Assembly (NCBI GenBank): GCA_027046625.1
Contig: JALTXX010000013.1
Coordinates: forward strand, 1 to 13,155
Source of the DNA: Candidatus Micrarchaeota archaeon
Lineage (GTDB): Archaea > Iainarchaeota > Iainarchaeia > JAADDC01
Direction of reading: 5' to 3'
Length of the DNA: 13,155 bases
The notes under the pieces are model-generated. The model was not told the DNA's origin. It saw only the letters and a program-made list of their open reading frames with translations, and made no database searches. The first letter of the stretch is position 1. Every line of letters starts with the position of its first letter. A program made the translations under genes and the position numbers. Shown here one piece after another: positions 1 to 11,755 of this stretch.

Positions 1-1235
1 TCTGCACAGTAGTAATATCTAAAGGATGGGTTGGTAGTACAGTCAGCATCCTGTGTTGTAGTACTCAAATCATCATCAGACGCAGGTATAAGGATTTCTG
101 TCACTCTCTTTGGCTCTATCCAGAAAGGTAGTACGTTGCCATTGGCATCCACGAATCGAATATCGTTTGCTAAGGGATCTACGTTGTAGTTGTTCAGATC
201 GAGTACTATTCTTGTTTGATAATCGTTTAGATCGAAGGCATTGGGGTTGGTTACATTTATCTCCAGTCTGTACTTCCAGTTGGGATCCCACCAGTTGGAT
301 GTACCGGTTCTATACTGAGACGTAAGGAGGTTTCCTTCAAGGAAGATATTAATCCAGTTGTTGGGAACTGGGGTTCCGTTTCTTTCCAGATATCCAAACA
401 CTGTTACAGTAGAAGAGGGTGCTGTTACCTGAGGGTTTAGATCTGCTGATATGGTAAGACCACCAGTTCCTATACCTATGGGATCTGCAATGCTGTTTGG
501 TCGGGGATCGAGATCAAATGGACCATTATCTATTATTCTAAGGGAGAATCTGTCCCTATGTACGCCAAGAAATACCCATATGTTCCCATCAAACTTATAA
601 ACCTTGAACAAACCAGGTGTTTCTATATTTATATCTAGGAATGGGCCGTTTCTTTCCACGTAGAACACTTTCAGCCCGTTAAAATCTCCAAGCAGTTCGT
701 ATGCAACACCTTGTGTGTTAAGTGTTATGGATCCTAGTGTGTAGAAGTTTCCAACTTTTGTTAGGGGTTTAGGAATGGCGTTCAATTCTATTTTGAATGG
801 TCTTTTGATAAAAACTGTGGATGTGGCCGTCTTTCCATCACAGTAAAGTGTGGCAACATAGTTACCTTCAGGTACGTCAAGAAAGTCACCACACCTATCT
901 CCTATACAGACCCTTACAGTGTTACACTCTGCATTTACGAGAGGTTTCACGCCGAACGGCGTCACCTCAAAGTCTACGGGGAAAAATTGCAGATTTTTCT
1001 CAAATAACTGACCATTGTACTCAACTATTACATTGTATGAAATCTTTTTTCCCAGGAATATTTGGGTGGTAGGTCCAGATCCTACAAACTGGGTACACTT
1101 CCCCTCTACACATATAGTATCCACATTCCCTTCAATAAGCGCATAGGCTCCATCTTTCCAGAGGCCTTGAATAATGGGCATAGCATAGGCTGCACTTATT
1201 ACTGCTATAAACCCCACGAGGCCCACTAAACGCAT
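1..1235 (-). CDS. Large secreted/surface protein with DUF2341 domain (N-terminal 411 codons, runs off the left edge; absent from the ORF track)
   Basis: Manual translation from ATG 1235 is open to the window edge. Signal peptide MRLVGLVGFIAVISAAYA; Cys-containing beta-rich region; YKFDGNIW...IIDNGPFDLDPRPNSIADPIGIG (resembles the choice-of-anchor U end motif); WWDPNWKYRLEINVTN...DYQTRIVLD...DIRFVDANGNVLPFWIE (DUF2341 signature). TATA-like TTAAAA begins 29 nt upstream. Confidence 0.9.
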   Translation of the reverse strand, partial: MRLVGLVGFIAVISAAYAMPIIQGLWKDGAYALIEGNVDTICVEGKCTQFVGSGPTTQIFLGKKISYNVIVEYNGQLFEKNLQFFPVDFEVTPFGVKPLVNAECNTVRVCIGDRCGDFLDVPEGNYVATLYCDGKTATSTVFIKRPFKIELNAIPKPLTKVGNFYTLGSITLNTQGVAYELLGDFNGLKVFYVERNGPFLDINIETPGLFKVYKFDGNIWVFLGVHRDRFSLRIIDNGPFDLDPRPNSIADPIGIGTGGLTISADLNPQVTAPSSTVTVFGYLERNGTPVPNNWINIFLEGNLLTSQYRTGTSNWWDPNWKYRLEINVTNPNAFDLNDYQTRIVLDLNNYNVDPLANDIRFVDANGNVLPFWIEPKRVTEILIPASDDDLSTTTQDADCTTNPSFRYYYCA

Positions 1236-1258
1236 CGTAAGGAATAATACATTTGGGG

Positions 1259-1264
1259 TTTTAA
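1259..1264 (-). promoter_or_regulatory. TATA box for a leaderless transcript of the DUF2341 protein
   Basis: TTAAAA on the minus strand starting 29 nt before ATG 1235; same spacing as other genes in the window. Confidence 0.6.
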
Positions 1265-1281
1265 TGCTAACTCTGTCCTGT

Positions 1282-1322
1282 GTGGAACCACCACCTGGTG
1301 GCAAAGAGCTATGTGTGCCACC
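1282..1322. promoter_or_regulatory. Cluster of GTGG/CCAC inverted repeats between divergent promoters (putative regulator sites)
   Basis: GGTGGCA(1297-1303)-N12-TGCCACC(1316-1322); CCACC-T-GGTGG (1291-1301); GTGG-AA-CCAC (1282-1291). Confidence 0.4.
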
Positions 1323-1328
1323 GCAACC

Positions 1329-1362
1329 TTTAAAAGTGATGAAGCGTTTCTCTATGCGGTGA
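1329..1362 (+). promoter_or_regulatory. TATA box and Shine-Dalgarno of the 224-aa gene
   Basis: TTTAAAA at 1329 and archaeal SD GGTGA at 1358-1362, 4 nt before ATG 1367. Confidence 0.7.
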
Positions 1363-1366
1363 TACC

Positions 1367-2041
1367 ATGAGGAGGATATTGGCACTCTTAGGGCTGTTGG
1401 TAGTGCCATTTGCCTTTGCAGCCACACCAGTAACGGTAACAACCGGTGCACCGCAGACCTATACCACTACATCCACCCCTGGTTCTGTGGATGTAAACGC
1501 GGGTTATGTGATAGAAACCAACGTTACAGTAGAAACGGTAACCCAGTGGTGGACAGGTACCTACGGTAATGTGAACGAAACAGTAGTGCTTGGAGCAGGT
1601 ACCAGCAAGTTCTTCGTATGGAACCTGTCAACACTAACAGGATATGTATACTTTACAACAGCATCATCTGTAAACTTTGCAGACTTGAACATAAACGTGT
1701 CTACAACAGATGTAAACGCAGCAATAGCTTCTATTACATCCACCAGCTGGACACCGAGCGCAGACGAGAACTTTGAGGCAACCTTTGCAAACACCGATAC
1801 TACAGGTACATACTGTAGCATTGCAAACGCCAAGTACGTATTAACATTGGACAACACACCTGCTGCGGTGTGGCCAACCTGTGCCTACAAGGAGAACGCA
1901 ACGGGAGCACTAGTGTTTGAGGCAAAGATCAGGCAGGACCAGGCGGCATTTGATGGTAGTACCGTAGATTACCAGGCACTATTGCCAGCAGTTGTGGAGA
2001 GCGGTGCTGGAGGACTAGTATACTACGTGTGGAAAGGTTAA
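1367..2041 (+). CDS. Secreted Thr/Ala/Val-rich protein, 224 aa, no membrane anchor (candidate structural surface subunit)
   Basis: Signal peptide MRRILALLGLLVVPFAFA; 5 N-X-S/T sequons (NVT, NET, NLS, NVS, NAT); 2 Cys; ends YYVWKG without a TM helix; own TATA, SD and T-rich terminator; marked preference for AAC/TAC/GCA/ACA codons. Confidence 0.9.
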   Translation: MRRILALLGLLVVPFAFAATPVTVTTGAPQTYTTTSTPGSVDVNAGYVIETNVTVETVTQWWTGTYGNVNETVVLGAGTSKFFVWNLSTLTGYVYFTTASSVNFADLNINVSTTDVNAAIASITSTSWTPSADENFEATFANTDTTGTYCSIANAKYVLTLDNTPAAVWPTCAYKENATGALVFEAKIRQDQAAFDGSTVDYQALLPAVVESGAGGLVYYVWKG

Positions 2042-2054
2042 TGATTAGCCCCAT

Positions 2055-2080
2055 CTTTTCCCTTTTTATATTTTGTTTCT
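2055..2080 (+). terminator. T-rich archaeal terminator after the 224-aa gene; contains TTTATA (2065-2070), a possible promoter for the next gene
   Basis: CTTTTCCCTTTTTATATTTTGTTTCT shortly after the stop at 2041. Confidence 0.55.
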
Positions 2081-2096
2081 CTAAACATATGGGTTG

Positions 2097-3791
2097 ATGA
2101 GGTGGATCCTGCTCTTCCTGTTGCTACCACTTGTGTGGAGTGCAAATATAAACATCTCTAATTCTGCTGATTGGCGCTTTGCATATATATTGGGTTACTA
2201 TTCCTTCGTCGGAGGGGATTACTTCTATGGATTAGACAGTCAAGCAACTGCAAGGGAGGTGTTTCCATATCTACCTTCTGAGAGAGAAAAACAGACCGAT
2301 ACAGTAACCATTTTTTCTGATAGAAACCCTATAATGGATAACTATGATACATTTCTTAGGGGAATGGGTTTTAGAAACGTAAGAACAGAGGTCTATAGAG
2401 ACTTCGACGAACTAACTCAGACTCTTTTCCAAAGGTACGGGCCCTTTGAGTGCTATGTAATAGTGGCTGATGGGGGTGGGGAGTGGGCGTATGCAGGCTC
2501 TGCATTGGCAGCTAGGTATAAATGTGCTCTGTTCATAGCTAACACAGATACCATAGATACAATTACATCCCTTGTGCCTAAGGATGGAAATATTATTATC
2601 ATAGGGTATGCTGGAAAACGGCTGAAAGAGACTTTTCCCAATGCTATCATAATAAACACTGGTAACAGAGCAAAGGATACGGTGGAGGTGGCAAGGATCC
2701 ATTCAAAGAAGCCAGCTACTGTGTACCTGGTGTCTGGCATGTACCTCTACTTACCAGGACATTACAAAGATCCTGCGGTATGGACAGGGGGAGGATCCAT
2801 ACCTATACTAGCAGCCTACCCAGATGAGCTTCCCGAGCCCGTGAAGGATTATATACTTAAGAGTGGCGTAAAGTTCGTGGGTTTTTACGGGGCAGAGCTG
2901 TATGATCTATATGGAAGAGAAAGGGAGGAGCTATCAAAGGAGGGTGTCAAAGCTCTTGTATTTACAACTTTAAAGTTCAGAAATGTGCCAACAAGGGATC
3001 CAAACAAAGAATACCCGCCTAATGTGTTGTTCATGCCTGGTGGGGATGTATTTGTATCTCTAGAAAGGGTAAATGCCTTAGCTGAGGGGAAGATCCTGTT
3101 CCGCTTCAGGAACACAGGGAAAGGGATAGTATATCTCATGCCCCTTATTGTAAATGTGAAGTGTGGTGGGGAGGAGGTGCCCATCTCCCTCCCTGAAGAA
3201 CCTCTCGTCATACTACCGGAGAGCGTATACATATGGGAGGTAAGTACTCAGCCCTTACCTTCCACGGGCTGTGAAGTGTACTTTGAAGGCAGATACGGTC
3301 CTGATAAGGACAGGATGATGTTTGATTACAATACTACTCTAGGTTTTATGCCCGAAAAGATAGAGGATCCCTCTACCCTTGAAGTGAAGAGGGTACTATA
3401 CTCTCCACGTTTGAAAGCCTTTGTAATATACGTATCTAATCCATCTTCAGTGAAGGTATACGCCTATCCCTCTTTGAAGGGAGTGCTGGTGGATGGTATA
3501 CCGACAGATTTTTCTGGGAGGATGGGGGTAGTACCTCCCAATGGAGAAGGAAAGCTGTATGTAAAGGCAGAACTATCAGATGCCGACATCATAGATAACC
3601 CAACCGTAAAGGTTATGATACGCTATGGAAAGCGGGCAGACCTTCCCATTAAGCTGTTGGAGGGGGAGTTTAATCTAGAGAAAGAAACATTCACCGATGT
3701 AGTTGTGGAGCTTATACAGGAGAACTTTGTGTTGGTAACAGCTATCGTAGTGTTAATATTAGTGATTCTCCTTATTCTACGGAGACGATGA
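2097..3791 (+). CDS. Membrane-anchored surface protein with cell-wall-binding repeat 2 (CWB2)-like repeats and C-terminal Ig-like domains
   Basis: ATG 2097 (TTG 2094 is an alternative); signal peptide; CWB2-like units YVIVADG..ALAARYKCALFI..NIIIIG..GNRAKDTVEVA and TVYLVSG..IPILAAYPDELPEPVKDYI..VGFYG; beta-sandwich motifs FRFRNTG and IYVSNPS; C-terminal TM helix followed by RRR. Confidence 0.8.
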   Translation: MRWILLFLLLPLVWSANINISNSADWRFAYILGYYSFVGGDYFYGLDSQATAREVFPYLPSEREKQTDTVTIFSDRNPIMDNYDTFLRGMGFRNVRTEVYRDFDELTQTLFQRYGPFECYVIVADGGGEWAYAGSALAARYKCALFIANTDTIDTITSLVPKDGNIIIIGYAGKRLKETFPNAIIINTGNRAKDTVEVARIHSKKPATVYLVSGMYLYLPGHYKDPAVWTGGGSIPILAAYPDELPEPVKDYILKSGVKFVGFYGAELYDLYGREREELSKEGVKALVFTTLKFRNVPTRDPNKEYPPNVLFMPGGDVFVSLERVNALAEGKILFRFRNTGKGIVYLMPLIVNVKCGGEEVPISLPEEPLVILPESVYIWEVSTQPLPSTGCEVYFEGRYGPDKDRMMFDYNTTLGFMPEKIEDPSTLEVKRVLYSPRLKAFVIYVSNPSSVKVYAYPSLKGVLVDGIPTDFSGRMGVVPPNGEGKLYVKAELSDADIIDNPTVKVMIRYGKRADLPIKLLEGEFNLEKETFTDVVVELIQENFVLVTAIVVLILVILLILRRR

Positions 3792-5623
3792 TGTGGTTAC
3801 TACTCCTGCTTCCCCTTGCCTTTGGGGCTTCCCTTGACGTAAATGCAGGCTATGTTATAGAGTCGAACCTACTTATTGAGGCAAATTTGACGGATACTAG
3901 CTGGCTTGGAATATACGGCTATGTAAACAGTAACCTCGAGAAAAAAGATTATACCTACTACATCTCACCCCTTGCGGCCGTTATAAACCTTAATCCTCCC
4001 AACGAGGTGAGGGTGGCAGACCTCAATCTTTATAACTCTGTAGAGTACCCGAGGAGTAGTATTCAGTGGTATGCCATCGTGTCTCCTTCGGGGGATGTCA
4101 ACCTCTATGAGTTGAATGATGCCTGTGATAACAATGTTGATGATTTGCTTGAAGGAAACTTTACCCCAGACACCCTTCCATCTCTTACCTATGATAAGAA
4201 CACTTTCATAGTGGTGAATGATAGAAATCTGTGTGCATTGTACGCAGAAACATCCTTTGGAAAGCGTATCTATCTACTTGAGTGGAACGGGGAGCCTGTG
4301 TACCTATCCAAGATATCAGACTTTAATCTTGGAGGGACGGTTTATAACTTTGCATTCCTCATAACTGTTCCACCCCAACTTTACCTATATTTGGCAAGGG
4401 AAAATATTATATGTGGAGATCTGGTGTGCGATCCGGGAGAGACAAACTGTTCAGACTGTATAAACCTTGAGATAAACGTGTCTCCCGATTCCAAGGAAGC
4501 AAATATAGGCACCTCTGTTACATATACCGTAACCCTTACAAATAACGGCAATTCTGATCTACTTGTCTCTCTCTCCCTTAGGGAGATAACAGCCCCGGGT
4601 ACTTATGCCGCATCCTTCTCCGAAACCAATGTTACTGTTCCCGCCGGAGATGTCAGGGCTGTAAGTCTTGTGATCGGAGCCTCCGATCCTGGTACATATG
4701 GTTTCGTGGTGGAAGGAAATGTAAGAGGGGTTTCTATTACCTCCAATGAGTTTGTACTCGTAGTTGTATCTCCCACGCCTGAGGAAACTACGGAAGAGGG
4801 GGGTGGCGTAGTAGAAGAGAACGCTCCCACTTCTACCGAAGAGAATCTAGCCCCCATACTAACCCCAAGAGGATATTATATACCCTGGATGGGTTGTATA
4901 TCCTACATAAATGTTTTTTCTCCGGACGTGGTTGAGGTGGGAGTGGACGAAAATGTAACGGTATCTGTAATCGTGCAGAATGCTGGTACATGTGAAGAAA
5001 ACATTATATTCTCCGTAGAGGGCTATGATAGCTACTTTGTAGATGAAAACAGCTTTTCTCTATCTTCGAAGAGTGCTAAAACCTTAGATGTGGTATTCAC
5101 AGGAGAAAAACAAGGAGTTTATGAAGTAAAGTTGAAGGCAAAGGGATTCTATACCTCTACAAGGAAGATGATTCTAAGAGTGGTGGGAAAACAGGTTATA
5201 GAAAGGGGATGTATCTCAAAGCTTATGTTTATGACACCAGATGTGATGGAACTGGTGGAGGGCGAGGAAATAAACGCTGCTGCAGAGGTGAAGAACGAGG
5301 GTACCTGTTTAGAAGATGTGGAGATTAGGCTCATAAAACAGTCCATGGGAACGGAGGTACTGTTGGACAGGAGAGACATCAAAATCCCTCCAGGTGAAAG
5401 ATACATATACAGACCACCTCGTCTGGCAACCGGAGAATATAAGCTCTATCTTTCGTCTGGCCCTCTAAAGGATGAAGTGTCCATTGTTGTGCGACCCAGA
5501 TCTGTTGTCACTGGAGTGGCTGAGGAATTGTTGTTGAGAAGCAGATTTGCGGTACTAATACTTATGATAGTGGTACTGTTGGCAGCCCTGTCCTATCTTA
5601 GAAGTAGGTACCTTTCCTCATAG
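3788..5623 (+). CDS. Membrane-anchored paralog of the 224-aa protein with a Cys-rich module, three CARDB/NEW3-type Ig-like domains and a C-terminal TM helix
   Basis: ATGA overlap with the upstream stop; signal peptide; DVNAGYVIE identical to the 224-aa protein; CGDLVCDPGETNCSDC; YTVTLTNNGN, VIVQNAGTC, AEVKNEGTC; acidic P/T/E linker; TM helix FAVLILMIVVLLAALSYL followed by RSR. Confidence 0.9.
   Translation: MMWLLLLLPLAFGASLDVNAGYVIESNLLIEANLTDTSWLGIYGYVNSNLEKKDYTYYISPLAAVINLNPPNEVRVADLNLYNSVEYPRSSIQWYAIVSPSGDVNLYELNDACDNNVDDLLEGNFTPDTLPSLTYDKNTFIVVNDRNLCALYAETSFGKRIYLLEWNGEPVYLSKISDFNLGGTVYNFAFLITVPPQLYLYLARENIICGDLVCDPGETNCSDCINLEINVSPDSKEANIGTSVTYTVTLTNNGNSDLLVSLSLREITAPGTYAASFSETNVTVPAGDVRAVSLVIGASDPGTYGFVVEGNVRGVSITSNEFVLVVVSPTPEETTEEGGGVVEENAPTSTEENLAPILTPRGYYIPWMGCISYINVFSPDVVEVGVDENVTVSVIVQNAGTCEENIIFSVEGYDSYFVDENSFSLSSKSAKTLDVVFTGEKQGVYEVKLKAKGFYTSTRKMILRVVGKQVIERGCISKLMFMTPDVMELVEGEEINAAAEVKNEGTCLEDVEIRLIKQSMGTEVLLDRRDIKIPPGERYIYRPPRLATGEYKLYLSSGPLKDEVSIVVRPRSVVTGVAEELLLRSRFAVLILMIVVLLAALSYLRSRYLSS
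4892..5500 (+). repeat. Protein-level tandem duplication of an Ig-like domain (105-aa period)
   Basis: GCISYINVFSPDVVEV..VQNAGTCEENI..GVYEVKL (from 4892) versus GCISKLMFMTPDVMEL..VKNEGTCLEDV..GEYKLYL (from 5207). Confidence 0.75.
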
Positions 5624-5653: not shown

Positions 5654-7000
5654 ATGCCGAAAGGGGTGTTGCTGCTCGTATTTTTACTACTAATAGGTGG
5701 TATTTACTACTTCTTTCTCTCCTCTCCTCCAAAGGAGATAACACCCCCATCCATCATCCTGTCCCCTGTGGTTGAGGAGGGAGTAGTGGGACTGGATGGG
5801 AAGATAAAACTAACAGGTGATGGAGAGTATAGGGTGGAAGGGAGGGTATACATCTCCTCCAATGGTATAACATTGAAGGAAGAAGAGATTAATACCACGC
5901 TAAAGGGACCCACAGACTATCCGATTACTCTGCCTCCCACAAGGGTGGAGGGAAAGGCAACGGTTGGAGCAGATATCACGGTTAAGGGAGATACAATTTT
6001 ACGTATAAAGGAAGAGGTGCCTGTAGAGATGCCACATCCTATCTATCTAACCATTCCTCCTTCCTTCTCCATATATCCAACCTCTGTTTCTCCCACAGAG
6101 AATGGATACGACGTAACTCTTAGGGTTGAACTATCCAATCCCAATGAGGAATCCCTCGATATTAAGGATGCAAAGGTAAAAGTGGAAGACAGTACCTATA
6201 ATGTTTCCATTTCGAAGCTTGATGGAAACGAGCGCAAGCACTATGATATACCAGTTTCCATAGATGGAAATACACTATCTGGGGAGCTTTCTCTATCATA
6301 TTCGATATCTGGAAAGAAAAGAACGGTAGTTTATAACTTTTCCCTGTCCTTTCCTCCTTTCAGTCAGCAGAGGCCCCTGTATAGATTGAGCTATTCTATT
6401 ACATCCCTTTCGAATGAGGGAGTAAAGCTGAGGATAAAGCTCTTCCTAAAGAACGAGGGAGCCCTTCCTTATACGGCAAAGGATCTGAGGATAAAGATTA
6501 GGGGTAAAGATGGTATCGTAAAGGAAGTTAACCTAGGAAATGTTACTATTCCACCTCTTTCGGAGAAGAACATTACAAAAGATGTTAGTGCGGTACCTCT
6601 TTTGATCGGCGGGAGTATAGAAGTGTACGAGGGTGATGAAAGGGTTGTATCTGTTCCCTTGGAGCTGGTGTCTTCTGATCTTATCAAGCCTCCATCGGTG
6701 GAAATAAACATAGAGGAGGTCAACGGAACCGGAGCGGATAAGGTGCATCTCATCATAACTAATACCAACGATTTTAACATCAATGTAAAGGATGTAGACA
6801 TAGCTGTATATAGGGGTACCACGAACCTTACATCAGACTTCTCCTCCTCGCCTGTGGAGATTGACGATAAACATACATTTACCGCTGAGACTACCTTCCT
6901 TTCAGGTCTACTAAAGATCGTAGTGAAGTACACTTATGGTCTTGAGAGCTTAGGTCTCTGGTTCAATGAACAGATTACTACTTACTATAGAGCCTCCTGA
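5654..7000 (+). CDS. N-terminally anchored protein with tandem LEA_2/WHy-like beta-sandwich domains
   Basis: N-terminal TM helix; three units VTLRVELSNPNEESLDIKDAKVKV, LRIKLFLKNEGALPYTAKDLRIKI, VHLIITNTNDFNINVKDVDIAVY matching the LEA_2 NPN motif pattern. Confidence 0.75.
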   Translation: MPKGVLLLVFLLLIGGIYYFFLSSPPKEITPPSIILSPVVEEGVVGLDGKIKLTGDGEYRVEGRVYISSNGITLKEEEINTTLKGPTDYPITLPPTRVEGKATVGADITVKGDTILRIKEEVPVEMPHPIYLTIPPSFSIYPTSVSPTENGYDVTLRVELSNPNEESLDIKDAKVKVEDSTYNVSISKLDGNERKHYDIPVSIDGNTLSGELSLSYSISGKKRTVVYNFSLSFPPFSQQRPLYRLSYSITSLSNEGVKLRIKLFLKNEGALPYTAKDLRIKIRGKDGIVKEVNLGNVTIPPLSEKNITKDVSAVPLLIGGSIEVYEGDERVVSVPLELVSSDLIKPPSVEINIEEVNGTGADKVHLIITNTNDFNINVKDVDIAVYRGTTNLTSDFSSSPVEIDDKHTFTAETTFLSGLLKIVVKYTYGLESLGLWFNEQITTYYRAS

Positions 7001-7598
7001 GCAAATCCCTGTTGAACTCTTCAATCTCCTTCCTTGTCATGAGCTTTGATATGAGAGATACATAACCCTGTACCATTCCAGCCGCAAGCAATGCTGCCCT
7101 CTGTAAATCTCCAGGATCTATCTGAAGGTTTTCTGTGGTAAGAACTTCTATTACGGTGGGGCCGTAAAAGAATATGAAGTAGAAAAGGGACTCTATGTTA
7201 GGAAAGTCTACAGTAACATCTATATGTCCATAATAAGATCCGGTTTCCTTATCCTGCTCTATGTCTGATACTGCCACCTTCTTTACGTTAAAGTCCTTCT
7301 TTAATCCTTCTACAATTTCCTCTAAGCTCCTCTTTAGGAGAGACTCGTCCACAGATTCAACCTCTATAATACCGTGAACCAATAATTTTTCCGGTTCCTC
7401 TTCGAGGGCTACCCTTATATGGGGAGCCAGTGCATACTTTGGAGGGGTACCCTCCTTTACAATGAGTCTCATCTTCAGCATCTCCTTCAGCGCATCCATT
7501 ACGTCATGAATGTCCTTGTTTAGCCTCTCTGCTATCTCTTCGGCTGTTAACTTCTCCTTTGCCAGTAACAAACCTATCTGTTTTTGTAATTCTTCCAT
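6978..7598 (-). CDS. Winged-helix DNA-binding domain fused to an uncharacterised archaeal alpha/beta domain
   Basis: Likely start MEELQKQIG at 7598 (ATG 7646 is an alternative); HTH LTAEEIAERLNKDIHDVMDALKEMLKMRLIVKEG..PKY; C-terminal GIIEV..GHIDVTVDF..YGPTVIEV. Confidence 0.8.
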   Translation of the reverse strand: MEELQKQIGLLLAKEKLTAEEIAERLNKDIHDVMDALKEMLKMRLIVKEGTPPKYALAPHIRVALEEEPEKLLVHGIIEVESVDESLLKRSLEEIVEGLKKDFNVKKVAVSDIEQDKETGSYYGHIDVTVDFPNIESLFYFIFFYGPTVIEVLTTENLQIDPGDLQRAALLAAGMVQGYVSLISKLMTRKEIEEFNRDLLRRLYSK

Positions 7599-7610
7599 GC
7601 ATATAGTGAG

Positions 7611-7623
7611 AGGCTTAAAGCCT
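7611..7623. promoter_or_regulatory. 13-bp palindrome AGGCTT-A-AAGCCT upstream of the wHTH gene
   Basis: Perfect 6-bp arms with a 1-nt spacer, 13-25 nt upstream of ATG 7598. Confidence 0.4.
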
Positions 7624-7713
7624 TTGAATGGAATGTATTGTTTCATGGAGTATAACCTTCCCTATCTATCATCTAGTGTAATGAAATACGCATCATTTTT
7701 ACCTCCAGGAGAC

Positions 7714-8008: not shown

Positions 8009-10279
8009 ATGCACGTAGTGTGGATCAAGGATGTAAGGAAGGATGATGTATCTCTTGTTGGCGGGAAGGGAGCAAACTTAGGAGAATTGATAAACGCAGG
8101 CTTGCCTGTGCCTCCCGGATTTATAGTTACGTCCGAGGCATTCTTCGAATTTTTAAAAGAAAGTGGTTTAGGGGATAGAATTTATCCTCTTCTTGATGAG
8201 GTTGATGTAGAAGACACAAAACAGCTCCAAGAAGTGTCAAAACAGATTATGGGAATGATAGAGGAGGCTACTATTCCCTCCCACATTGCTAGAAGTGTTT
8301 CCACCTTCTATAGAGGGCTTTCCAAAAAATATGGAAGAGGAAAGGATGTGTGGGTCGCTGTAAGATCCTCCGCCACGGCAGAGGATCTGCCAGAGGCATC
8401 CTTTGCAGGTCAGCAAGCAACATTTCTCTTTGTTAGAGGAGAAGAGGAACTTCTGAAGCATGTAAAAAAGTGCTGGGCATCACTGTTTACAGCAAGAGCT
8501 ATATACTACAGAACAAAACAAGGATTCCCCCATAGAAAGGTAGGTATAGCTGTGGTGGTTCAGAAGATGATAAACTCAGAGGTTTCTGGGGTAATGTTTA
8601 CAGCCCATCCAGTTGATGGCTCTCCTAAAATAATTATAGAGGCTGCTTGGGGACTGGGAGAAGCTGTTGTATCGGGAAGAGTAACCCCGGATGAGTATGT
8701 GGTGGACAAGGAATCTATGAAGATTCTGGAGAAGAGGGTAGCAGAGCAGGATATTATGATAGTACAAAAGCCAGAGGGAGGAACAGAGGAGGTAAAGGTT
8801 CCTCCGGAGAGGAGAAAGGTTCAAAAGCTGCCAGATGAGAAGATTCTGGAGTTGGCGGAAATAGGAAAGCGCATAGAGGAACACTATTCATTCCCTCAGG
8901 ATGTAGAGTGGGCCCTAGAGGAAGGAACCCTCTATATTGTACAGTCAAGGGCTATTACTACCATAGGAAAGAAGGTGGAGTCTAATACTACAGCGGAGGG
9001 AGAGCCTGTTTTGAAAGGGTTGCCTGCATCGCCCGGAATAGCCACCGGAAAGGTTAGGATAGTGCTGGATCTCTCCGATCTCTACAAAGTCAAGGAAGGG
9101 GATATACTTGTTACTACCATGACATCCCCTGATATGGTACCTGCCATGGAGAGAGCTGCTGCTATCATAACGGATGAAGGAGGAATGACGTCTCATGCAG
9201 CCATTGTATCGAGGGAACTTGGTATTCCGGCGGTGGTAGGGACAGGTAATGCAACCAAAATACTGAGGGATGGCGAAGTTGTTACTGTGGATGCGTATAA
9301 GGGTGTTATATACAGAGGGAAGGTTGAGAAGGAGGATGTGGAGAGGAAGAAGCAGGTGGAAGTGATAAGAAGTGCCATTGCACTACCTACTGCCACCTTG
9401 GTGAAAGTTAACGTGGCACTACCTGAAGCAGCTGAGAGAGCTGCCCAAACAGGTGCGGATGGAGTAGGACTGTTACGAGCTGAACATATGATAACGGCCA
9501 CAGGTAAACACCCCGCTTGGTTTGTGTACAATGATAAATTGGAGGATCTTGTGCATGCAGTTTATAAGGGTATAAAAGTTGTCGCCTCTAAGTTTCATCC
9601 AAAACCTGTATGGTATAGGACATTTGATGCCAGAACAGACGAGTTTAGGCATTTGAAGGGAGGAGAAAAGGAACCAGAGGAAGATAATCCTATGTTGGGG
9701 TGGCATGGCATAAGGAGATCCCTGGAACAGAAGGAAATACTCTCCTCAGAGTTCGAGGCCATAAAGATGTTATACGAGGAGGGAATGGATAACGTAGGTG
9801 TTATGATACCCTTTACCATTTCCGTAGATGAATACATTGCTACAAAGAGGATTGCAAAAAAGGTAGGTCTTATTCCCCATAAAATGGTAGATTTTGGTAT
9901 TATGGTGGAGACACCTGCAGCAGCCCTCACAATAAAGGATTATATAAGGGCAGGTATTGACTTTTTATCCTTTGGAACAAACGATCTTACCCAGTTAACA
10001 CTAGGTATTGACAGAAACAATGAAAGGATCCAACATCTCTTTAACGAGAAGCACCCCGCCGTTTTGAAACTTATCAAATATGTGATAGAGCATGCAAAAC
10101 CACATGGAGTGGAGACATCCATTTGTGGTCAGGCGGGTTCCGATCCAGAAATGGTGAGAAAGCTGGTAAGAATGGGAATAGATAGTGTTTCCGCGAATAT
10201 TGATGCCGTCCAAAAGATAAGAGAGGTTGTATATAGGGAAGAAAGAAGAATAATGTTGGAGGCTGCCAGAAAGCTCTAA
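8009..10279 (+). CDS. ppsA: Phosphoenolpyruvate synthase (pyruvate, water dikinase)
   Basis: VGGKGANLGEL, VAVRSSATAEDLPEASFAGQQ, phospho-His motif GGMTSHAAIVSRELG, GVGLLRAE, SFGTNDLTQ, ICGQA. Confidence 0.97.
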   Translation: MHVVWIKDVRKDDVSLVGGKGANLGELINAGLPVPPGFIVTSEAFFEFLKESGLGDRIYPLLDEVDVEDTKQLQEVSKQIMGMIEEATIPSHIARSVSTFYRGLSKKYGRGKDVWVAVRSSATAEDLPEASFAGQQATFLFVRGEEELLKHVKKCWASLFTARAIYYRTKQGFPHRKVGIAVVVQKMINSEVSGVMFTAHPVDGSPKIIIEAAWGLGEAVVSGRVTPDEYVVDKESMKILEKRVAEQDIMIVQKPEGGTEEVKVPPERRKVQKLPDEKILELAEIGKRIEEHYSFPQDVEWALEEGTLYIVQSRAITTIGKKVESNTTAEGEPVLKGLPASPGIATGKVRIVLDLSDLYKVKEGDILVTTMTSPDMVPAMERAAAIITDEGGMTSHAAIVSRELGIPAVVGTGNATKILRDGEVVTVDAYKGVIYRGKVEKEDVERKKQVEVIRSAIALPTATLVKVNVALPEAAERAAQTGADGVGLLRAEHMITATGKHPAWFVYNDKLEDLVHAVYKGIKVVASKFHPKPVWYRTFDARTDEFRHLKGGEKEPEEDNPMLGWHGIRRSLEQKEILSSEFEAIKMLYEEGMDNVGVMIPFTISVDEYIATKRIAKKVGLIPHKMVDFGIMVETPAAALTIKDYIRAGIDFLSFGTNDLTQLTLGIDRNNERIQHLFNEKHPAVLKLIKYVIEHAKPHGVETSICGQAGSDPEMVRKLVRMGIDSVSANIDAVQKIREVVYREERRIMLEAARKL

Positions 10280-11382
10280 CCTTCTAACACAACTACTTCC
10301 ACCCCTTCTGGAGGCTTCTGTAGTATTTTCTTCACTCCTACAATCTTTTTTACCCCTCTCCCCTTTGCGAGGGAAGCTAGTCTGCTTGTTATGATGCCAT
10401 CCATAACTATGGTATGTATGTTTTCTGCTTCTTCTAGCGTATTTTTTAGCTCTCTTACCATGGTTTCCCCTATTACGTTTCCTTTTTCATCTATTAACAG
10501 AGCCTTTAGAGTACCCTTTATCTCTTTTAGTTTTTCAATCAACGGATCAGCCTCGGAGGGTTCCTCCCTTTTCTCTACTGGTGTCTTTCTTCTGAGTGCT
10601 TTGAGTATCTCTTTCTGGGTGAGTTCTTCCACTTCTTTTCCATCGGGAGCCCTTGCAATATAGTCTACATCCATGTTTTCTAGTGCCATCTTTATGATTA
10701 GATCTCCCCCTCTGTCTCCGTCTACAAAGAGTGTTACCACCTTTTTCTTTGATAGCTCCTTCAGTGTATTGGGCACCCTGTTTCCATTCATTGCAATTAC
10801 ATTTCTTATGCCGTGTTTGAGAAGGTTAAGCACGTCGGCTCTGCCTTCCACCACTATTATTTCCTCTGATTCATCTATCTCTGGGCCAGCTGGTAGCTTA
10901 TCTTCCCCATACTCTACAATCTCAGCCTTTCTCAGCTCTTCCTTCACCTGATTAATAAATTCCTTTGAATCTGGAATTTCTTCCTCCATCATCCTCCTTA
11001 GGAGCTCCTTGGCCCTCTCTACTACATACCTTCTCTTGGATGATCTCACATCCTCTATCTTTTCTACCTTCATGGAAGCCTCTGTTGGCCCTATCCTATC
11101 GATGGTCTCTAGAGCAGCGGCTATTATGGCTGTTTCTACCATGCCTAGTCCAGAGGGTACTATTACCTCTCCTACAGTGGATCCATTCTTTCTCTCTAGC
11201 TTAGCCTCGATCCTTCCTATTCTTCCCGTTTTTTGTAGCTCTCTAAGATCAAGTTCCTCTCCTAGTAGACCCTCGGTCTGACCGAAAATGGCTCCTATGA
11301 CGTCTGGCTTTTCTACCATGCCCCTTGCCTCTAACCTTGCCTTTATAAGGTACTTTACGGAATCTACGTAGATCTTCCCCAT
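10276..11382 (-). CDS. dnaG: Archaeal DnaG (bacterial-type primase homolog, exosome-associated)
   Basis: VEKPDVIGAIFGQTEGLLGEELDLRELQKTGRIGRI; Toprim motifs VVEGRADV and DGDRGG; DGKEVEEL. Start MGK at 11382 is 6 nt after SD GGAGGTG (11395-11389). Confidence 0.96.
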   Translation of the reverse strand: MGKIYVDSVKYLIKARLEARGMVEKPDVIGAIFGQTEGLLGEELDLRELQKTGRIGRIEAKLERKNGSTVGEVIVPSGLGMVETAIIAAALETIDRIGPTEASMKVEKIEDVRSSKRRYVVERAKELLRRMMEEEIPDSKEFINQVKEELRKAEIVEYGEDKLPAGPEIDESEEIIVVEGRADVLNLLKHGIRNVIAMNGNRVPNTLKELSKKKVVTLFVDGDRGGDLIIKMALENMDVDYIARAPDGKEVEELTQKEILKALRRKTPVEKREEPSEADPLIEKLKEIKGTLKALLIDEKGNVIGETMVRELKNTLEEAENIHTIVMDGIITSRLASLAKGRGVKKIVGVKKILQKPPEGVEVVVLEG

Positions 11383-11734
11383 TAACATCACCTCCCTTAA
11401 CATCTTCCACATGTTTTACCCCAAATATTGCATAGAAACGCCTCCTGAGGCGTTCATCAACTCTTATATCCATAGAAAGCAGGAGCATACGCATGCTCCT
11501 ATTGAGTTCCTCCCCCCTTCTATCCATATCTGTTAGTATTACTGCTCTTCTTATGCCCATGTTGTATAGCATCTCCGCAAGTTCTGGCAGCCCCTTTGCA
11601 TCCTTCAGTGTTACAATCCTTCTGATTCCTAACTCTCTTAATGCCTCTCTATCCCTCTTGCCCTCTACCACTATGCAAAAGTCCTCTCTTGTATCTGATA
11701 GTTCTTCCAGAAGTTTTTCCATTTCTGTTAGCAT
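11249..11734 (-). CDS. Small Toprim-domain protein (RNase M5-like/UPF0292 type)
   Basis: IVVEGKRDREAL, VILTDMDRRGEEL, KHVED. ATG 11734 follows GGTG (11722 is an alternative). The frame runs 134 nt into dnaG. Confidence 0.88.
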   Translation of the reverse strand: MLTEMEKLLEELSDTREDFCIVVEGKRDREALRELGIRRIVTLKDAKGLPELAEMLYNMGIRRAVILTDMDRRGEELNRSMRMLLLSMDIRVDERLRRRFYAIFGVKHVEDVKGGDVNGEDLRRFRKVPYKGKVRGKGHGRKARRHRSHFRSDRGSTRRGT

Positions 11735-11755
11735 GAGGAACACCACAGGGGGAGG

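Follow-up and report, generated by a model that had tools for sequence, protein, structure and literature searches.

A stretch of 13,155 nucleotides from a Candidatus Micrarchaeota archaeon (contig JALTXX010000013.1 of assembly GCA_027046625.1; hereafter the window, and contig C13 of a 652-kb genome that is in 18 contigs and 94% complete) carries a co-directional row of four surface-protein genes, here called A, B, C and D, and, divergent from A, the 5' part of a gene for a giant secreted protein. Judged by their alignment, A and C's N-terminal domain are paralogues, and by domain matches the same domain (the A domain) is found in three co-encoded formats, i.e. as a free protein, at the N-terminus of an anchor, and at the C-terminus of a giant. 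The conserved surface-gene set probably forms an anchored appendage or coat which, we infer, serves for sticking to other cells. No library searched describes the A-domain family or its fold, whereas systems of this kind, with a secreted subunit, a paralogue as anchor, an adhesin and a base of wall-binding type, are already known. We tentatively interpret the locus as a Sec-dependent tip-shaft-anchor surface assembly held by contacts between A domains, an interpretation that we regard as possible and somewhat short of probable. DNA of the window was traced in hydrothermal-vent metagenome runs, and no RNA run was listed for it. The genes on which the argument turns are the following.

1367..2041, plus strand: gene A, a 224-aa secreted protein with a hydrophobic segment at the N-terminus only; signal peptide at residues 1-18, mature protein of 206 aa, 21.8 kDa and isoelectric point 4.05, with five N-glycosylation sequons; an N-terminal extension (about residues 19-38) and a core domain without known fold relative.
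2097..3791, plus strand: gene B, 564 aa (start at 2094 or 2097 possible); signal peptide, triple CWB2 module at about 12-285, two beta-sandwich domains at about 310-530, and a C-terminal transmembrane helix.
3788..5623, plus strand: gene C, 611 aa, its start overlapping the stop of B (ATGA); signal peptide, A-like domain at about 14-205 without the N-terminal extension, a four-Cys module, immunoglobulin (Ig)-like domains, and a C-terminal transmembrane segment at 580-607.
5654..7000, plus strand: gene D, 448 aa; N-terminal transmembrane helix and beta-rich ectodomain.
3..1223, minus strand: 5' part of the giant gene, encoding the N-terminal 407 aa with a Sec-type signal ending AYA; the gene exits at the start of the window.

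An earlier reading of the window, made from the sequence alone without database searches (the sequence-only reading), had described A as unanchored and B and C as anchored, in agreement with the hydrophobic segments, which are N-terminal only in A and C-terminal in B and C; the ATGA overlap that it had noted between the B stop and the C start is real. The Pfam matches of its three putative Ig-like domains in C are all below the cut-off. It had also aligned A with the first part of C by pairs of short motifs, all of which are visible in our alignment. BLASTP aligned residues 40-136 of A with 15-106 of C (44.3 bits, E 2e-9, 33/103 identical, 32%), and the Smith-Waterman score of A against the C domain was 113, a value reached by 0/1000 shuffles of the C domain (mean 34.1, standard deviation 5.7, maximum 70). 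This pairwise signal is limited to the first ~100 residues. When six C-type N-domains were compared with the 138-sequence family alignment, hhalign gave a probability of 97.6% (E 3.8e-12, 163 columns, query 1-194), and the match extends from the first segment of the core as far as its last strand. The homology of A with C's N-terminal ~195 aa thus covers the whole domain, and the domain-length homology on which the sequence-only reading hung is present. Since the match begins at template column 59, C is without the ~20-residue mature N-terminal extension of A.

A search with A as a single sequence found only two relatives, and the family emerged only with a profile. Of 1.84 billion cluster representatives 991 matched the profile at E <= 1e-3 and, at the stricter threshold of E <= 1e-10, 307. 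Most are 200-270 aa long with a Sec-type signal. A word-based search with the family alignment gave 832 proteins at E <= 1e-10. Family members that are named in their sources are almost always called 'hypothetical protein'. The family is uncharacterised, as the sequence-only reading had suspected: neither A nor the other scanned family members gave a match in Pfam or NCBIfam over the A-like domain or among PDB sequences, and no description of the family was found in the literature, the search of which covered main texts and not supplements such as the tables of homologues in PMC9245690 and the AbpX preprint. In the same search, again outside supplements, none of the literature matches listed joins DPANN archaea with a donor strand or with TasA. 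The family alignment is marked by a signal ending in Ala and followed by mature x-P-x-G-A-x-V-T, by a G-N-(V/I)-T sequon, by one Trp and one Gly that do not vary, and, right at the C-terminus, by an aromatic strand and then E-L.

A-like loci were confirmed in species genomes in 427 cases, and labels and neighbourhoods were counted for the best 78 of these 427 loci, with neighbours taken within 6-kb flanks. The labels are Woesearchaeota (33 loci), Methanosarcinales or Methanosarcinaceae (18), Nanoarchaeota/Nanoarchaeia (9), unclassified archaeon (7), Pacearchaeota (6), Methanoperedens (2), other euryarchaeal labels (2) and ANME-2 (1). Occurring in Methanosarcinales besides Woesearchaeota, Pacearchaeota and Nanoarchaeota, the domain is not DPANN-specific. 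The architecture of a subunit with an anchored paralogue, which the sequence-only reading proposed, recurs far beyond this genome, in a system that extends outside DPANN. Some of the Methanosarcinales labels among the carriers may be wrong, one 'uncultured Methanosarcinales' genome (L045) being ~0.9 Mb in size; the Methanoperedens and Methanosarcinaceae carrier genomes are of 3.3 and 2.9 Mb. Within the window's phylum the A domain is confined to the window's own family (5/215 genomes). Copies per genome amount to 7 and 10 in two Woesearchaeota and to 2-4 in three Methanosarcinales-labelled genomes.

Two to seven family members per locus were present in 76/78 loci. The small members (n=204) cover model positions 10-237 of 240 and end at a median of one residue past the domain. 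In the N-terminal-type proteins (n=12) the match starts at 45-55 of 240 in ten, the other two being cut by contig ends, so that the mature extension (model positions 31-50) is missing in 10/10 with an intact domain start. The C-terminal-type proteins all end with the family's terminal motif at their own C-terminus; some of their domains start at model positions 57-78, right after a CARDB-like domain, and others carry the whole domain. Long stalks carry the A domain at their distal ends, and it is found fused with further modules, among them CARDB and MAM. In a maximum-likelihood tree of 96 A-like domains (supports given as ultrafast bootstrap/approximate likelihood-ratio test), 13/19 C-terminal-type domains fall in one clade (100/99) with this genome's giant and Methanosarcinales and Nanoarchaeota members, 10/12 N-terminal-type domains form a separate clade (86/89), and the DPANN small proteins make up two clades, which correspond to the first and the second gene of a pair. 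By these clades the formats are old.

The same parts also recur as neighbours. Methanoperedens, ANME-2 and several Methanosarcinales-labelled loci show the order C-terminal-domain protein, small protein, B, N-terminal-domain protein, i.e. the parts of the window locus, while the order in DPANN loci is winged helix-turn-helix (wHTH) protein, small, small, transmembrane Ig-like protein, (B). The most recurrent neighbours are an ArsR-type winged-helix protein (54/78 loci), an N-terminally anchored Ig-like protein (42/78), a full-length B homologue (24/78), and a protein with two sigma-70 region-4 helix-turn-helix motifs (23/78). In other loci of the family the ArsR-type wHTH gene is often directly upstream of the small genes. 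The sigma-70 region-4-type protein (~168 aa, PF08281, E 1.5e-10; e.g. L051 2372-2875), whose domain is unusual for archaea, is found just upstream of a small member. When single sequences from the window were compared by hhalign without predicted secondary structure, which makes a weak test, probabilities were <4% for C against Methanosarcinales N-terminal-type proteins, <4% for D against the transmembrane Ig-like neighbour family, and 3.8% for the 222-aa winged-helix protein beyond D against the ArsR-type neighbour family.

A whole-genome search found exactly three A-like domains, namely A, the one in C, and one that closes an 1830-aa open reading frame (ORF) at its C-terminus, at the start of contig C10 (locus L115, 2-5494). 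Residues 248-406 of the window's giant align to 668-823 of a 2320-aa same-genus protein (E 1e-22), and residues 2-69 of the C10 ORF to 926-992 of the same protein (E 4e-19). From these alignments contigs C13 and C10 very probably join, the two ORFs being pieces of one giant gene of ~2,300-2,340 aa with ~102 codons missing; this collinearity with one protein would make a giant ending in an A-like domain the divergent neighbour of A. No transmembrane segment was found in the available parts of the giant (window and C10), and its window part has a weak DUF2341 match. Beside the giant gene, at 5591-14148 of C10, is an archaellum cluster with three archaellin genes, ArlH, ArlJ and two ArlI, the latter being full-length paralogues in tandem (620.7 and 550.7 bits); a genome of the same genus (L007) likewise has the giant followed by archaellin genes.

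A-B-C-D are contiguous in two sister-genus genomes, and most other assemblies break at contig ends. D is present in 10/14 family genomes and directly downstream of the C homologue in eight. Judged by this gene order, A-B-C-D is a conserved four-gene operon within the taxonomic family. The trio A, B and C singled out by the sequence-only reading is therefore conserved together, albeit as part of a system with five parts and not three.

An AlphaFold2 model of A, built from 138 sequences, had a mean predicted local distance difference test score (pLDDT) of 92.4 and a predicted template-modelling score of 0.84. Regular strands begin at residue 62; the segment of residues 21-60 is placed with confidence (pLDDT ~88-92), although it is largely irregular. 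Foldseek gave nothing at E <= 0.001 for the A model against PDB (best E 0.45, template-modelling score 0.16; no jelly-roll match among the matches listed), and nothing at E <= 0.001 against a viral library. In the ESM Atlas a model of the homologue P0080 matched only the family's own unnamed clusters; the named clusters scored <0.3 in template modelling, with no usable feature match among them. As far as the model and the searches run allow, the A domain would thus have a fold without known neighbour. In direct-coupling analysis (451 sequences) the extension and the C-terminal strand come up as a pair at rank 13, a contact for which intra- and inter-chain origin are indistinguishable.

The CWB2 likeness that the sequence-only reading had seen in B was borne out by structure alignment, in which VIA-align matched three tandem CWB2 repeats as one module. 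The B model (pLDDT 87.6) has three parts ahead of the transmembrane helix, the second beta-sandwich being at ~430-530, and Foldseek returned generic tandem-Ig matches only (RbmA, transglutaminases, FimC). There was no sequence match of the window's B to PF04122; of its family 10/26 match at E <= 1, the best with 22.1 bits, below the cut-off of 24.9. To our knowledge the cell-wall polymer bound by CWB2 in Clostridioides difficile is not to be expected here. A cytoplasmic zinc ribbon follows the transmembrane helix in 15/26 B-family proteins (e.g. L049, L086) and is missing in the B of the window and in all three aligned members from the window's family.

In the tip-shaft-anchor assembly that we tentatively favour, the A domain would act in each of its formats: as a free secreted glycoprotein (A), as the distal N-terminal head of a stalk (C), and as the C-terminal end of the giant. 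A domains would bind one another head to tail, the ~20-residue extension of a free subunit docking beside the C-terminal strand of the next domain. C, being without the extension, could only accept, and would root the assembly in the membrane as acceptor only. Neither the giant nor A has a transmembrane segment, bar A's signal peptide, so each would need a partner to stay on the cell, and the giant, as the adhesive end, would be attached by its A-like domain. B, with its triple CWB2 module on a two-domain stalk, would be a base or a glycan-binding co-anchor. Support comes from the three A-like domains in the genome, the giant gene as divergent neighbour of A, the co-encoding across phyla, the missing extension in anchored forms, the age of the formats, the coupling of extension and C-terminal strand, and the published Tat-fimbriae (tafi), which follow the same logic. 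The homology, the three formats, their co-encoding, the missing extension, the CWB2 fold of B and, within the searches run, the new fold of A are observed; the binding between A domains, its polarity, the chain length and the attachment role are what we infer.

Several observations weigh against this interpretation. In the A monomer model the extension (residues 21-40) is docked on the body with pLDDT ~88-91, which fits an intramolecular segment equally with a closed donor, and in the searches run the A fold showed no likeness to known strand-donating pilins. With N-terminal donation, the lack of the extension in the anchor type and in many giants would make both of them acceptors at the same chain end, so that the polarity is ambiguous. 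The main N-terminal-type clade does not include C and its relative, which form a long branch elsewhere in the tree, a placement with which a single origin may still hold, and the broad family hidden Markov model matches C at residues 14-50 only. The two constant DPANN paralogues would fit a heterodimer as well as a fibre. Moreover, the abundance of A assumed by the sequence-only reading is unsupported. The biased codons that it had noted are real in that A is an outlier in codon usage (1.9th percentile on the first principal component and 97.9th on the second, PC2), but high expression is not indicated. The other 19 genes of the top 20 on PC2 comprise Cas3, Cas7/DevR, a flagellin-like protein, assorted enzymes and nine genes without Pfam family, with no ribosomal or other housekeeping genes among these 19 scanned, and codon usage was rejected as a sign of abundance.

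The gene set might instead be a non-polymeric coat or adhesin set, in which the A domain binds ligands or glycans as the head of the C and giant stalks and free A docks on the CWB2 module of B. Such docking would resemble the C. difficile H/L complex, where the low-molecular-weight S-layer protein is bound on the CWB2-bearing high-molecular-weight (HMW) protein. We consider this unlikely, albeit with several points in its favour: B is beside small members in 24/78 loci, long stalks carry the domain at their far end, with fusions to CARDB, MAM and others, two Woesearchaeota genomes hold 7 and 10 copies, and the predicted A monomer is complete with its extension docked. On the other hand, a coat leaves unexplained why it is specifically the anchored forms that are without the extension and why the three formats are kept together across phyla; A matched no lectin or binding fold, and B is missing in 54/78 loci within the flanks examined. 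It is very unlikely that A is the main S-layer or lattice protein on C and B stalks. The protein is secreted, acidic, glycosylatable and without anchor, and the logic of stalk plus canopy recalls two-component archaeal S-layers. However, a 904-aa secreted protein elsewhere in the genome (contig C7, 33902-36616) passes TIGR01564 (26.5 bits, cut-off 25) and is, by this match, likely the organism's S-layer protein, which speaks against the S-layer-like lattice of the sequence-only reading. A is also small for an S-layer protein, A, B and C gave no match to S-layer families, and the domain is in only 5/215 genomes of the window's phylum. The family is moreover found in Methanoperedens-, ANME-2- and Methanosarcinaceae-labelled genomes, and Methanosarcinales have an S-layer protein of another kind.

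Extremely unlikely, in our estimate, is that A belongs, in divergent form, to the TasA superfamily (TasA, AbpA, AbpX, CanA, thread/tafi subunits) and forms a classical donor-strand biomatrix fibre. The Sec signal, the size of ~20 kDa, the acidity, the co-encoded paralogues, the anchor with a subunit-like domain and the nearby regulators would all suit such a protein. Yet hhalign of the A family against six archaeal PF12389 proteins gave 5.7%, in the signal peptide only and with a shallow TasA alignment (control 99.5%), and the 25 families listed for the 138 members do not include PF12389; 42 further families with a single member each lie beyond this list. No signal peptidase gene was matched in the window, this genome and four other carriers gave no PF12389 match, and PF12389 is present in 2/81 genomes of the order around a Methanoperedens genome. 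The likeness to TasA and the bundling pilus proposed by the sequence-only reading does not extend to the fold of A, which resembles neither in the searches run. A type IV filament was considered as well and rejected: A, B and C are without a class III signal family match (TIGR02537 or archaellin families), while the archaellins on C10 do match. The A-family signal, ending in Ala before x-P-x-G, is unlike the class III signal of archaeal type IV pilins and archaellins. That A, B and C lack such a signal, and that no assembly ATPase is matched among the window ORFs, had both been noted correctly in the sequence-only reading.

The remaining features of the window flank this gene row.

1224..1366: divergent intergenic region between the giant gene and A, with a TATA-like TTTAAAAG at 1329-1336 and GGTGAT at 1358-1363 as putative promoter and Shine-Dalgarno (SD) elements.
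2056..2078, plus strand: T-rich runs after the A stop, a candidate archaeal terminator read from the letters.
6978..7646, minus strand: winged-helix protein of 222 aa, convergent with D and overlapping its last 23 bases.

The TATA box, SD and terminator that the sequence-only reading had assigned to A are thus present as putative elements. However, TTTAAAAG is only ~35 nt before the A ATG, so that GGTGAT may sit at or before the transcript start, and box and SD may not both act. The 222-aa winged-helix protein has weak TrmB/MarR matches and is a putative regulator, possibly tied to the operon. The window also holds housekeeping genes for phosphoenolpyruvate synthase, DnaG, a Toprim protein, Hjc and a YlqF-type GTPase. 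On its minus strand the small Toprim protein (PRK04017-like, 11249-11746) is directly upstream of DnaG (10276-11412); the two ORFs overlap by ~160 bases, and one start codon is therefore probably further downstream.

A bolder claim, which we regard as doubtful, is that the locus represents a new class of archaeal appendage, i.e. a Sec-dependent, ATPase-independent fibre or chain with an acceptor-only anchored root, a giant-adhesin tip and a CWB2 base, used in hundreds of DPANN and Methanosarcinales species for cell-cell attachment. If so, its subunit fold would be unrelated to type IV pilins, TasA-like jelly rolls and Ig-type pilins. The means by which DPANN hold host cells are largely unknown, as are the roles of the unannotated secreted proteins of Woesearchaeota and Pacearchaeota, and the locus ties ~1,000 unnamed protein clusters to one gene set of free subunit, anchor, giant adhesin and CWB2 base. 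It also puts a bacterial-type CWB2 anchoring module to use on an archaeal membrane protein. Methanoperedens and ANME-2 grow in laboratory enrichments, and since the gene set is found in genomes with these labels, the prediction is open to proteomics and microscopy.

Among known systems, chaperone-usher type 1 pili have a tip adhesin whose pilin domain is C-terminal and without its own donor strand, and their subunits are linked head to tail. They differ in that chaperone, usher and outer membrane are missing here and the fold is unrelated; the FimC-like matches of B are generic two-Ig matches. The CWB2 proteins of C. difficile (Cwp8, Cwp6, SlpA HMW; PDB 5j6q, 5j72, 7acz) have the CWB2 module in common with B, whereas the archaeal protein is held by a C-terminal transmembrane helix with the module distal to two beta-sandwich domains.

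TasA-superfamily loci combine minor subunits, tip proteins, anchors and regulators, according to two sources (bioRxiv 10.64898/2026.01.04.697558; PMC9245690). In the same sources the TasA/TapA, AbpA/AbpB, AbpX and CanA fibres are alike in having secreted, ~20-kDa, acidic, beta-rich subunits and in needing no ATPase; their N-terminal segment pairs with a C-terminal strand, and paralogous minor, tip and anchor parts are encoded nearby. Set against that description, the window differs in the negative profile comparison and in that no signal peptidase or DUF5305 gene was matched in it. In the archaeal PF12389 control loci (L118 2098-2667; L119) several TasA-like paralogues are found together with a signal-peptidase-like gene, as in bacterial tasA operons.

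The tafi of Haloarcula hispanica differ from the system described here in their Tat signal, where a Sec signal is used here, and in the subunit, since A has no Pfam match, the 25 families listed for the 138 members do not include DUF1102, and no pilin-like fold was found for A. In tafi (PMC11821415), the subunit-like domain of TafC is N-terminal, in contrast to its C-terminal position in the giant, and the CWB2 protein has no counterpart; the present assembly is a predicted one. Both systems have a small major subunit. According to the same source, TafF, with a subunit-like domain at its N-terminus and a membrane span at its C-terminus, is the acceptor of TafA's donor strand, TafC is a larger tip adhesin with one subunit-like domain, and regulators are encoded in the locus. 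C has the make-up of such an anchor, with an N-domain homologous to A and a C-terminal transmembrane segment at 580-607. The tafi, together with the Sec-dependent DUF1102 analogues, represent the closest published logic, TafF comparing with C and TafC with the giant in architecture only.

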